Position numbers and translations under genes: made by a program. Shown here piece after piece: positions 18,221 to 22,774 of a stretch of DNA of 64,000 nucleotides. The notes beneath the pieces are model-generated. The model was not told the origin of the DNA. It saw nothing but the letters and a program-made list of their open reading frames with translations, and searched no databases. Source of the stretch: Escherichia phage vB_EcoM_G2494. The DNA is taken from the sequence record MK327935.1, one strand, 5' to 3'. Numbering within the stretch: the stretch's first letter is position 1; each line of letters opens with the position of its first letter.

Positions 18221-18703
18221 TTTTGCTAAATCATTGCAATATTTTAGTGCCTTAGTTTGAAATTCTGCGCTGTTAAGTTCTTCATAACGGTCATAATCAC
18301 CGTTTAATGCTGCCTTTCTTGCTTCTTGCTCTATCTGCATGTCAGACATGATAATACAGCGATCCCGTGCTTTCATCTTCTCAAGTTGTATAGACTCTTC
18401 TTTCTGCTTGCGCAATTCTTCTTGACGCTTCTTTTCTTCTTGTGCTTTCTCTTCCCGCGCTTCTTTGATTGCATCCTTGAACATCTGCGTTTGTGGTGCT
18501 AAACCAACTTTAACGCGATCTACGTCTCGACGTTCCATTTTAGAAATAAAGCATGATTCGATCTTATCATCACTTGCATATGTTGCTTTACATTCACGAA
18601 GCAAGAAAACCGGATCTGATTTAGCATTCATCATAGCTTCCATGTTAGCACAACCAGTAAGCATGAATACAGCCGCAAGACCAATTAGTTTAATCATTTT
18701 CAT
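18218..18703 (-). CDS. predicted lipoprotein with coiled-coil region (161 aa)
   Basis: Signal peptide with lipobox LTGC (MKMIKLIGLAAVFMLTGC); GAGGTG SD. Confidence 0.6.
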   Translation of the reverse strand: MKMIKLIGLAAVFMLTGCANMEAMMNAKSDPVFLLRECKATYASDDKIESCFISKMERRDVDRVKVGLAPQTQMFKDAIKEAREEKAQEEKKRQEELRKQKEESIQLEKMKARDRCIIMSDMQIEQEARKAALNGDYDRYEELNSAEFQTKALKYCNDLAK

Positions 18704-19524
18704 TTAGTCACCTCACCGAAAATTGTAAATTGTCTACGATTCTCATCGCCGAAAGATTCTACTACGTCGTTTACCTTGACGCAAGTCCCGCGCGGTAAAA
18801 TTACTTCACATTCGCAAGGGTTCCATGCAATGGACCCAACAACAAAACCTTTATGATCTTTTACATCAATCACCCATGATACATTACAAGAATGTTGCAT
18901 CTTTCCGGTCATTGATTCATATCGATTCTCACAATAAAGGCTAGTGCTGTTTGAAAGCCATCCTCCAAAGATGATCGGTGTCATGCTAGTAGATACAAAG
19001 TTTTTAAAGGTAAATTCCTTATCTTCAATAATACGCTCTATTGTCTGAATGTCAAGATGTTGACCGCGATAAAGAGTACCGTTTAACTTTTCGGTTTTAT
19101 CCATGACACAATCCATCAAATCAACAATCTCTGATATCTCATCGGTCATGTCTTCTTCCCCTAAGAGAGCACCATTTACCCATTCGTATTGTTCAGACAC
19201 ATAATCACAGATTGCATTATATTCTGCTGGGGTTATGTTGTTATGTTTGTAATGTTTGAATACATTATCTCCAAAGTCTTCGGAGTGTACTTCATACATC
19301 ACATTAATGATTTTCTTTACAAATCCATAATCTTGTGTCTCGCGCTCAAGGAAGCGGATAACCTTCACATAATCATCAAAGTTAATCTGATCGCTGATCA
19401 TTTCAGTGATCATGTAACCATTAATACCATCAATGTCATATGTTTCGATGTAATTATCCATACGTTCCATCATTGATTCGCGTGATTCTTCCGAAAGACG
19501 AAAATCCTGTAATTTCTTGAACAT
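18700..19524 (-). CDS. ADP-ribosyltransferase-like protein (Alt/Mod family paralog, 274 aa)
   Basis: R (LYRGQ), STS (FVSTSMT) and ExE (CECEVILPRG) motifs in the order seen in the Alt C-terminal domain. Confidence 0.6.
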   Translation of the reverse strand: MFKKLQDFRLSEESRESMMERMDNYIETYDIDGINGYMITEMISDQINFDDYVKVIRFLERETQDYGFVKKIINVMYEVHSEDFGDNVFKHYKHNNITPAEYNAICDYVSEQYEWVNGALLGEEDMTDEISEIVDLMDCVMDKTEKLNGTLYRGQHLDIQTIERIIEDKEFTFKNFVSTSMTPIIFGGWLSNSTSLYCENRYESMTGKMQHSCNVSWVIDVKDHKGFVVGSIAWNPCECEVILPRGTCVKVNDVVESFGDENRRQFTIFGEVTK

Positions 19525-19602: not shown

Positions 19603-21654
19603 TTACATTTTAAATTTATCTGGCATTGCGTCTACCGATACCAGATCAGCGATAAGCTGACGTAGAGTTGCCTTATCTGCTTTCTTACGTTCGGTTTTAG
19701 CTTCGGTAATAAATCTGGAGAAAGACAGGTCAGAAGCAGGTTTAACAACACCTTCACGGATGAATGCATCACCGTCCGCGATCATCTCACCAGATTCTTG
19801 TAATGCTGCCAGTTCATTTTTGTTCATAATATGTGCCTCAATGTAATAAGTTTCTTGTGAATCCGTCGATGCCGTAGCACGAGTTACCGTATCAAAGGAT
19901 AACACAACACCGCGAGGAAGTAAAATCTCGCATTCTTTGTAAGCAAATGCTTTGTTACCTACTGGCAACACAGGGATGTTTTCCGCGCCAGCAATGGAGA
20001 AAGCAACATTAGCGCCACCTTCACCGCGAGAGCCAGCCATAGAATCAACACCAGCAACGGCACTAGCCACGTTTGCATTCCAGCCGCCAAAAATGTTAGG
20101 TGCAAGGGAAGTGCTCACATAGTTTTTAAAGTAAAACGCTTTTTGCTTACGTGCAGTTTCCCACATTTGCGACCGGAAGTCCATACCACGATACAGAATA
20201 GTACCCGGATCAAGTTTAACGCCATAGTTGGAGAAGGCATTATCCAGTGCATCACACATCTTGACCAATTCTTCTGGATCTGCGATGCCTTCAAACTCTT
20301 CCAGCTTACGGTCGGTTAGGAAGTTGTTCATATTGATGTATGCTGCATCGGCATATTCGCTCAACACAAAACCTTCCGCGCCTGGCAGATCAAGATCAAT
20401 ATTTGCCATCATTTCACCCATGTTGCTAGCAATTGCTTCAAACATACCGGAAGCAACATTACGTAGGGCATCGGTTTTAATCTGGGTGATATGACTACGC
20501 AGCATTTCAGCTTTTACATCTGCTGGCATAGACTGGTCTACTCGATCCATTGCCAGGGCGGTGATCTTGTTTTCGAATACTTCCTCGCTCATGATTTCTT
20601 TTAAGCGTTTGATTGATGCTGCGATAACTTCCGCAGACAACGGATCATATTGATCCTGAACTTTTACCAGTTCGCTTACTGCGTATTTTGCATCGGCTTC
20701 GCTTTCAAAAATAGTACGCATGAAACCATAGCGAGTGATAATATCACTTGTCCATTCATTCAGAGAACGGGCGGTTGAACGTTCTAAGGCTTGACGATCA
20801 ATCAGAGTATTAAACTGTTTCTTAGGTTCGGCTTCGGTGATATCTTCTTCCGGTTTAAGATTAATTTTTTCTGGATGATTCACATAGTCGCTGTTATAGG
20901 TCGCTTGAGTTTTCAGCATTTCTTCTTTAGTCAAACGAGATTTAGCCGCTACGCGTTGTTCCGCTTCCGCGTTTCGTTCTTCTTCTGACACCAGACTAGC
21001 CGCATACGCCTCATCTTTAGTCAGAGATTCACCAGTAGCCTTAGATACCCAGCGATCACCTAAATCACTTTCTACTTTAGTGAACAAGGAATCATCAAGT
21101 TTAATCCCTTTAATCTTATCAATCGCCATACCGCGACGTTTGACAACAACTAAAGCGATCTTTTTGCTGGTCATTACTTCCTGCTGGAATACTTCAAACT
21201 TCGGTGTACGACGCACCAAACGCTCTATAACGCGCTTAACCAGTTCGGTCTTACCTTTCATGCGGGATACGTTAAAACGGAACATAACAGCGTCTAATTG
21301 CGCTTTACGGGCTGTTTCCATAACCACATCAAAAGCACTTGCCATAACTGCAATCGGGTTATCGCCTAGACCATTTTTAAGCTGTACAATACGACCGCTT
21401 TTGTTCATTTCGCACAGTACAACATGTGCGGTCTTGTCACCCATACGAATGATTTTAGGTGTTTTGTTGGTGAAGTTACAAAGACGGACAATCACATCTT
21501 TATCGCGTGTCTGTACTGCAAAAAGCTGTTTAGGATTCTGCTTAGGCTTTAAGCACTGTACCGGAGCAATACTGCCAAAGTTTTCTTCCTCTTCCGTCAA
21601 CAGCCATTTCTCGAAAGATTCAATCATTAGATCGTCGATTTCTAAGTTAAACAT
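19603..21654 (-). CDS. alt: Alt ADP-ribosyltransferase (packaged early-acting ART)
   Basis: 683 aa; C-terminal YRGMDFRS ... YVSTSLAP ... YKECEILLPRG R-S-ExE motifs; position between 54 and 30 as in T4. Confidence 0.8.
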   Translation of the reverse strand: MFNLEIDDLMIESFEKWLLTEEEENFGSIAPVQCLKPKQNPKQLFAVQTRDKDVIVRLCNFTNKTPKIIRMGDKTAHVVLCEMNKSGRIVQLKNGLGDNPIAVMASAFDVVMETARKAQLDAVMFRFNVSRMKGKTELVKRVIERLVRRTPKFEVFQQEVMTSKKIALVVVKRRGMAIDKIKGIKLDDSLFTKVESDLGDRWVSKATGESLTKDEAYAASLVSEEERNAEAEQRVAAKSRLTKEEMLKTQATYNSDYVNHPEKINLKPEEDITEAEPKKQFNTLIDRQALERSTARSLNEWTSDIITRYGFMRTIFESEADAKYAVSELVKVQDQYDPLSAEVIAASIKRLKEIMSEEVFENKITALAMDRVDQSMPADVKAEMLRSHITQIKTDALRNVASGMFEAIASNMGEMMANIDLDLPGAEGFVLSEYADAAYINMNNFLTDRKLEEFEGIADPEELVKMCDALDNAFSNYGVKLDPGTILYRGMDFRSQMWETARKQKAFYFKNYVSTSLAPNIFGGWNANVASAVAGVDSMAGSRGEGGANVAFSIAGAENIPVLPVGNKAFAYKECEILLPRGVVLSFDTVTRATASTDSQETYYIEAHIMNKNELAALQESGEMIADGDAFIREGVVKPASDLSFSRFITEAKTERKKADKATLRQLIADLVSVDAMPDKFKM

Positions 21655-21971: not shown

Positions 21972-22000
21972 ATTATGATATACACCCTCTGTTATGTCAA
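21972..22000 (-). promoter_or_regulatory. early sigma70-type promoter (TTGACA-17-CATAAT) with upstream A-tract
   Basis: Read on minus strand. Confidence 0.6.
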
Positions 22001-22006
22001 CAACTT

Positions 22007-22186
22007 TTAGAACATTTTTGAAATTAATTCTGCTTTGATTTCGCAGAGAACATCTAAAGATTTCTCGTCACCCGCTTTTGCTGCTTCTGCTTGCATTTTT
22101 GAAATGGCTTCAATCTCAGTGCAATTATAAGCCGCTTGAACTTTAGCGATTGCGAGGATTGCCGATTCGATGGTTAAGTGTTTTAT
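22007..22186 (-). CDS. hypothetical protein, ATA at expected start position (possible pseudogene or non-canonical start)
   Basis: 59-codon open frame placed exactly like neighbouring genes behind AGGAGAATCAAAC, but start codon is ATA. Confidence 0.3.
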   Translation of the reverse strand: MKHLTIESAILAIAKVQAAYNCTEIEAISKMQAEAAKAGDEKSLDVLCEIKAELISKMF

Positions 22187-22218
22187 GTTTGATTCTCCTT
22201 TCGTTTCGGTATGTGTGT

Positions 22219-22247
22219 ATTATAGGGGATCGATGATCCCCTGTCAA
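22219..22247 (-). promoter_or_regulatory. early promoter, consensus TTGACA-17-TATAAT with perfect palindromic spacer GGGGATCATCGATCCCC
   Basis: Read on minus strand; A-tract UP element upstream. Confidence 0.7.
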
Positions 22248-22255
22248 CAACTTTT

Positions 22256-22774
22256 TTAGTTATTTTTTAATTGCTCATCTTGCAATAGGGCAATCACATG
22301 CTGGCGATGTTCTTCCGATTGAGGCACACCGAAAAAGTTTGTTTTGTAGAAATACTCTAATCGGTCTTCTCGTGTGCTCTCTTCCATCATGATCGCGGGT
22401 AGTCCGAGATTTCGGAAACGTCGCTTTTCTGCTGGCGTAAAATCACTGTAATACATCATAGAATCATCATTACCAGCAATGCTAAACTCATCCTTCATGA
22501 AGGAGAATATTGCGTTTAAACGCTGTTTACCGTCCACGATTTCGATCTCATAGCGAGAGCCATCATCAATCTTAGCCATTGCGATAGCACCAACCGGAAA
22601 ATCATTAATCAGGTTTTCGATAAACATACGTTTGTTTTCGGTGTCCCATACTAAAGGACGCTGATAATCTGGGTTCATGTTGATATAGCCATCTTCTAAC
22701 CATGCATCATAAACAGAGATGACAAAGTTTTTAGTATTGGTATAGTAACGGCGTTTAGGCGTTAAACGGTTCAT
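22256..22774 (-). CDS. DUF262 / ParB-like domain protein (172 aa)
   Basis: DYQRPLVW and DGKQR motifs; ATG at 22774 with AGGAG SD, 1 nt after upstream stop (ORF-track start 22810 overlaps the upstream gene). Confidence 0.6.
   Translation of the reverse strand: MNRLTPKRRYYTNTKNFVISVYDAWLEDGYINMNPDYQRPLVWDTENKRMFIENLINDFPVGAIAMAKIDDGSRYEIEIVDGKQRLNAIFSFMKDEFSIAGNDDSMMYYSDFTPAEKRRFRNLGLPAIMMEESTREDRLEYFYKTNFFGVPQSEEHRQHVIALLQDEQLKNN

Follow-up and report, generated by a model that had tools for sequence, protein, structure and literature searches.

In the genome of Escherichia phage vB_EcoM_G2494 (MK327935.1), a consensus early promoter on the minus strand is followed by a 59-codon gene, the orthologue of ORF186 of phages RB49 and Phi1, which carries ATA (22186-22184) in the slot of the start codon. 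Coordinates are those of the window, meaning the whole stretch of 64,000 nucleotides analysed here. The ATA is probably the result of a recent and real G-to-A transition, which left a hypomorphic or near-null ORF186 allele in a dispensable gene. A preliminary description made from the window alone had proposed three readings of this codon (a point-mutated pseudogene, a non-canonical initiation codon or a sequencing error), and these are considered below against the relatives of the phage and against the published behaviour of AUA as an initiation codon.

The PeSL cassette of ORF186

A 501-nt query shared 99.4% identity with JSE and 96-98% with approximately 50 other records. A 24-kb query was 95-97% identical to Sf20, TB34 and others, and matched no record in full. 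By these comparisons, the window belongs to Krischvirus, the RB49/Phi1/JSE group of T4-type coliphages. The local gene order (DNA methyltransferase, ORF188, ORF187 with a DUF262/GmrSD_N domain, ORF186, ORF185 and alt) is common to 13 relatives. The upstream gene ORF187 (22256-22774, minus strand) encodes a 172-aa early protein in which GmrSD_N/DUF262, the N-terminal domain of type IV restriction enzymes, stands alone. Directly downstream of the PeSL array, also on the minus strand, two ADP-ribosyltransferase genes follow in tandem, a short Alt-like one (18700-19524) and a full-length alt (19603-21654).

The PeSL (promoter-early stem-loop), as described by Arbiol et al. 2010 (PMC2839356), combines the stop codon of the upstream gene, embedded in A/T-rich sequence, with a sigma-70 promoter of consensus type, a stem-loop of poly-G and poly-C located most often between -35 and -10 and, at the 3' end, the Shine-Dalgarno sequence and start codon of an ORFan. 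There are about 50 copies per genome, concentrated in the hyperplastic regions, and promoter and terminator activity was shown for some of them with lacZ fusions. Recombination between PeSLs excises or inserts the flanked gene, and the native promoters are so strong that cloning is hard (PMC2839356).

Every one of these elements was recognised in the window, with ATA in the slot of the start codon here and ATG in all of the relatives. The promoter, hairpin, leader and ORFan together therefore match the published cassette, and on sequence grounds we regard them as a PeSL. The likeness to the PeSLs of RB49 and Phi1 (PMC2839356; Comeau et al. 2014, PMC4122927) extends from the upstream stop in an A/T-rich stretch, the consensus sigma-70 promoter and the G/C stem-loop between -35 and -10 (the commonest subclass) to the common leader with its Shine-Dalgarno sequence, the small ORFan, the position in a hyperplastic region and the presence/absence polymorphism, in which excision leaves behind a chimeric PeSL. 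The difference is that the cassette is closed by ATA, and not by ATG, in this single genome. The preliminary description had recognised neither the mobile PeSL cassette as such nor the hairpin inside the promoter spacer.

On the minus strand, the 5' edge of the PeSL is an A/T-rich, UP-like stretch, TAACTAAAAAAGTTG (22248..22262), which contains the TAA of ORF187. It is followed by the sigma-70 early promoter (22219..22247), a 12/12 match to TTGACA-17 bp-TATAAT with its -35 at 22247-22242 and its -10 at 22224-22219. The 17-bp spacer (22241-22225) has the optimal length for a promoter spacer and is almost wholly occupied by the stem-loop GGGGATC-ATC-GATCCCC (22225..22241), identified by folding and by comparison with the relatives. 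This promoter had been called the best consensus in the window. The 12/12 match stands, but the whole-window scan found seven 12/12 promoters, and this one is unique only in its 17-bp spacer (16 or 18 bp in the rest). The perfect consensus is not universal, since the -10 of this promoter reads CATAAT in TB34 and Phi1. The loop of the hairpin also varies among the relatives (ATC, GGT, ACC), while the stem is kept, with one stem position that allows G-T.

For the 44-nt promoter segment (22219-22262), comprising the hairpin and a small upstream helix, the folding energy was -13.9 kcal/mol (z = -3.5). Around the Shine-Dalgarno sequence and the start, the leader was unstructured (-0.3 kcal/mol, z = 0.4), and mRNA structure was consequently rejected as something that might explain or offset the ATA. 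This common 5' leader, ACACACATACCGAAACGAAAGGAGAATCAAAC (22187..22218), contains the Shine-Dalgarno sequence AAGGAG (22200-22195) and, after it, the 8-nt spacer AATCAAAC. The leader had been described as the usual one, and motif counts agree: AGGAGAATCAAAC was found in 12 copies with up to two mismatches, all of them on the minus strand of the window, against 1.97 copies expected from shuffles (12 copies were reached in 0/100 shuffles). A scan of the window detected approximately 17 cassettes of this kind on its minus strand. ATG follows the Shine-Dalgarno sequence in every other such cassette in the window, so the ATA, which does occupy the expected start slot as had been reported, is a true exception.

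The ORF186 orthologue extends over 22007..22186 (59 codons and TAA). Behind the ATA, the frame runs through 58 sense codons to a TAA (22009-22007) that abuts AAAGTTGTTGACA of the next promoter, and its translation is IKHLTIESAILAIAKVQAAYNCTEIEAISKMQAEAAKAGDEKSLDVLCEIKAELISKMF followed by the stop; the 59-codon open frame ending at the next UP element, as first described, is thus borne out. The next PeSL promoter (TTGACA-17 bp-CATAAT, 21972..22000, -35 at 22000-21995) independently drives ORF185 (21935-21723).

ORF186 as a gene and its repeated loss

The ORF186 translation matched phrog_20811 over its full length in a profile search (E = 1.1e-41, residues 1-59 of 59). Thirteen homologues were found, with identities down to about 60%; in their alignment the N-terminus is in register, 22 columns are invariant and the most conserved block is VQAAY. 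Against the distant homologues dS was saturated and dN was 0.12-0.31, while dN/dS among the close relatives was uninformative, with only 0-4 differences per pair. AlphaFold2 modelled ORF186 as a three-helix bundle with a pLDDT of 91.8 (helices 5-19, 23-37 and 40-57). The conservation and the predicted fold show ORF186 to be a real protein-coding gene. ORF186 had no Pfam hit and no significant PDB sequence match, and a Foldseek search of the model against PDB and BFVD returned nothing at E <= 0.001, the best match being an uncharacterised Cellulophaga phage protein (E = 0.04).

Like RB49 ORF186, Phi1 ORF186 and JSE EpJSE_00193 (phrog_20811), the gene lies between ORF187 (DUF262/GmrSD_N) and ORF185, upstream of alt, and its protein is at least 97% identical to theirs after codon 1. 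It differs from them in the change of ATG to ATA and in I11L (ATC to CTC, 22154..22156), both private to this genome. I11L is conservative and falls at a site that is variable among the homologues; the frame is otherwise intact, with no second disabling lesion.

Four distant homologues (60-78% identity) are located in other phage contexts, without the PeSL leader. Some of these contexts are not T4-like; one homologue is beside Terminase_3/GP3_package and another is near a P22 Y8K6-like gene. Since the contexts differ in this way, the small gene moves between phages of unrelated types.

ORF186 is absent or damaged in several other genomes. In ECD7, Sf20 and pEJ01 the whole cassette is missing and ORF187 is joined to ORF185 by a single chimeric PeSL. 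Its promoter and hairpin derive from PeSL187/186, its leader and Shine-Dalgarno sequence from PeSL186/185. By its structure, this junction is exactly the excision product proposed by Arbiol et al., a textbook case of PeSL-mediated excision. In ELT4, an additional A (+1) in an A5 run of ORF186 creates a fusion with ORF185, which was annotated as a 465-nt CDS. In ERZ11466806, an ENA contig of 167,851 bp, codon 41 is changed from GAG to TAG (E41 to stop). In ERZ27298264, an in-frame deletion of 81 nt has occurred between two 12-nt direct repeats, ATTTCAAAAATG; the same repeat is present twice in the ORF186 of the window, at 22094-22105 and 22013-22024 (minus strand), 81 nt apart. The lesions in ELT4, ERZ11466806 and ERZ27298264 are independent. 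Because the cassette has been excised in three genomes and independently damaged in three others, ORF186 is dispensable. Moreover, the loss of ORF186 translation has no polar cost, because ORF185 has its own PeSL promoter (22000-21972).

Origin and translation of the ATA codon

The 14-sequence alignment showed ATG at the position of the ATA in 13/13 relatives (JSE, RB49, GEC-3S, ELT4, Delraymugoa, kaaroe, 011D4, G2248, W115, TB34, Brandy, Phi1 and E26). A 62-nt query across the start matched 37 phage records, none of them with 100% identity, and for 25 of the 37 the 60 aligned positions contained exactly one difference from the window. The exact 31-mer with the ATA allele had 0 matches in IMG/VR; with NNN at the start codon, the 31-mer matched one IMG/VR contig, with ATG, and had 0 matches in metagenome contigs. 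ATG was also present at the aligned position in two ENA environmental contigs and in the four distant homologues. Since ATG is found in all of the relatives, environmental contigs and distant homologues, and ATA in no other record, the ATA appears to be a derived G-to-A transition (minus strand, 22184) private to this genome. The comparison with orthologues thus bears out the point mutation suggested at the outset.

A shorter, 20-mer query with the ATA matched 16 metagenome contigs and one Fusicatenibacter MAG. These were rejected as chance matches (20-22 nt in common, no ORF186 homology by blastn or tblastn). The shared string of 20-22 nt, AAGGAGAATCAAACATAAAACA, is identical in the 16 gut-metagenome contigs and the Fusicatenibacter MAG, with no further similarity to the phage, and probably belongs to an unrelated bacterial gene, as its conserved ribosome-binding region.

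Because the ATA is confined to this genome, the comparisons do not support a conserved or programmed non-canonical start, and this part of the earlier proposal was not upheld. The infC gene has a conserved AUU start with a regulatory role, autoregulated by IF3. In both cases a near-cognate AUN start follows a ribosome-binding site of normal type, but the infC codon is conserved across species with a known feedback, whereas the ATA occurs in one genome only.

No ATG, GTG or TTG was found within reach of the Shine-Dalgarno sequence in any frame, and none in frame between the Shine-Dalgarno sequence and codon 31. A 35-aa ORF starting with TTG (22143-22250) was rejected, as its first codon lies in the -35 hexamer, before the transcript starts. 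With no canonical start in reach, and the ATG of codon 31 being unsuited, any product would have to start at the AUA. In vivo in E. coli, initiation at AUA amounted to 1-2% of AUG in a first sfGFP screen and to 0.02-3% of AUG in NanoLuc constructs (Hecht et al., bioRxiv 10.1101/063800), and to 7.5% in the phage HB-3 hydrolase (PMC5499595). When tested in vitro, an mRNA with AUA in an optimised initiation region performed like the AUG mRNA at 20-40 °C in extracts from rich medium, but AUA was at a strong disadvantage when nutrients were limiting and ppGpp was present (PMC5499595). The closest precedent is the T4 rIIB AUG-to-AUA mutant, which has the same third-base start codon transition in a gene of a T4-type phage read by E. 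coli ribosomes. According to the citation of Belin et al. 1979 (PNAS 76:700) in PMC5499595, its translation is about 15% at 25 °C (a drop of about 85%) and the mutant is leaky and temperature-sensitive. The rIIB mutant, in contrast to the present allele, which is natural and known from its sequence, came from laboratory selection and has been characterised biochemically. Some ORF186 protein may still be made, because the promoter is very strong, the Shine-Dalgarno sequence is AAGGAG with an 8-nt spacing and the leader is unstructured; by analogy with the published cases, residual expression from the ATA could be substantial.

If the phage truly has ATG, the A at 22184 (minus strand) would be an assembly or polishing artefact. 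Several features fit such an error: among at least 37 records the change is found in this genome only, it lengthens an A run (CATGAAAC to CATAAAAC), a lost start in an otherwise intact and conserved ORF is what an error is expected to look like, and ELT4 has, in this gene too, a +1 A in a homopolymer, which is a typical kind of error. The ATA, however, is a substitution and not a homopolymer indel, and the other private differences of the window resemble natural variation. Compared with six relatives over 17.5 kb, the window has 73 specific differences (41 synonymous, 28 non-synonymous, 3 intergenic and 1 indel). The synonymous share of the coding differences is 41/69 (59%), against 21% expected for random changes (binomial p = 4e-12), and the transition:transversion count is 46:26. 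There were no private stop codons or frameshifts in this comparison, and the sole private indel falls in an intergenic A run of a UP element. The assembly looks clean, because the window-specific substitutions are mostly synonymous, as natural variation is once selection has acted on it. Private differences in the 3.5-kb neighbourhood number 9 in the window and 1-12 in 11/13 relatives (kaaroe and Brandy have more, and differ more in the region), so they are as dense here as in most of the other deposited genomes. Two of the nine are in the 180-nt ORF186 (Poisson P = 0.08), which is compatible with relaxed or altered selection. Systematic methylation-linked miscalling at CATG was rejected as well: 55 other CATG sites are intact, just one other private change touches CATG, and there is no motif-linked pattern. 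A sequencing error, as first suggested, is thus rather unlikely, and the base is probably real.

A real ATA might also be a start codon under selection, retained to tune a potentially toxic early protein to a low, useful level behind an extremely strong promoter. The AUA would then supply a low dose of the small three-helix protein, possibly dependent on temperature or growth state and selected on the host of the phage. The intact remainder of the frame, the optimal initiation region (AAGGAG, 8-nt spacing, unstructured), the documented use of AUA as a near-cognate start and the difficulty of cloning the native PeSL promoters are all in keeping with this, and the repeated loss or damage of ORF186 in relatives could reflect a host-dependent cost. 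Against it, no other genome has the ATA, whether a close relative or a distant homologue, one occurrence cannot show selection, and full deletion of the cassette is common, so that simple loss explains the pattern without tuning. We consider selection for the ATA improbable. Re-initiation at the internal ATG of codon 31 (22096-22094; ORF 22007..22096), which would yield a functional C-terminal peptide of 29 residues, is very improbable. This ATG is in frame and was reported by a mechanical ORF caller, but it has no Shine-Dalgarno sequence upstream, and of the predicted bundle the fragment would lack helix 1 and the greater part of helix 2, VQAAY included.

Significance of the allele

A recent and real mutation of the start codon accordingly remains the probable explanation. 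A single G-to-A transition, in this genome alone, would have changed the ancestral ATG to ATA. Transcription of the cassette would be unaffected, translation would proceed only by near-cognate pairing of the initiator tRNA with AUA, and the output of ORF186 protein would drop to a small fraction of that of the wild type. The result would be a leaky hypomorph or, in effect, a null allele, which might be temperature-sensitive like the T4 rIIB AUG-to-AUA mutant. The ATA would not be under selection; most simply, the mutation would be a loss of recent date, neutral or mildly deleterious, with which the decay into a pseudogene begins. It would be tolerated because the phage can do without ORF186 and ORF185 is transcribed from a promoter of its own. 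Hypomorph or incipient pseudogene is the best name for the allele, as the gene is not demonstrably dead. The term pseudogene used in the preliminary description was right in that the canonical start is lost and no other is in reach, but it is too strong, since the frame is intact, low-level initiation at AUA is known and the T4 rIIB mutant is leaky.

The PeSL cassette and its ORFan gene are already known, and a start codon transition is an ordinary mutation with a direct precedent in T4. The finding matters little beyond annotation: gene callers would be expected to drop ORF186 in this genome or to call a spurious 29-aa fragment, and a fitting annotation would be an ORF186 orthologue with a mutated start (ATA) and possibly low-level expression. 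If the ATA were both used and selected, it would exemplify in nature how an accessory gene of a phage is tuned through its start codon. Provided that the allele is real, this phage offers a natural, ready-made hypomorph with which to probe the role of ORF186. Across genomes, this one 180-nt gene shows five outcomes (start codon loss, nonsense mutation, frameshift, repeat-mediated deletion and excision of the whole cassette), and it provides a small, clean illustration of the decay of PeSL-flanked accessory genes in RB49-like phages.
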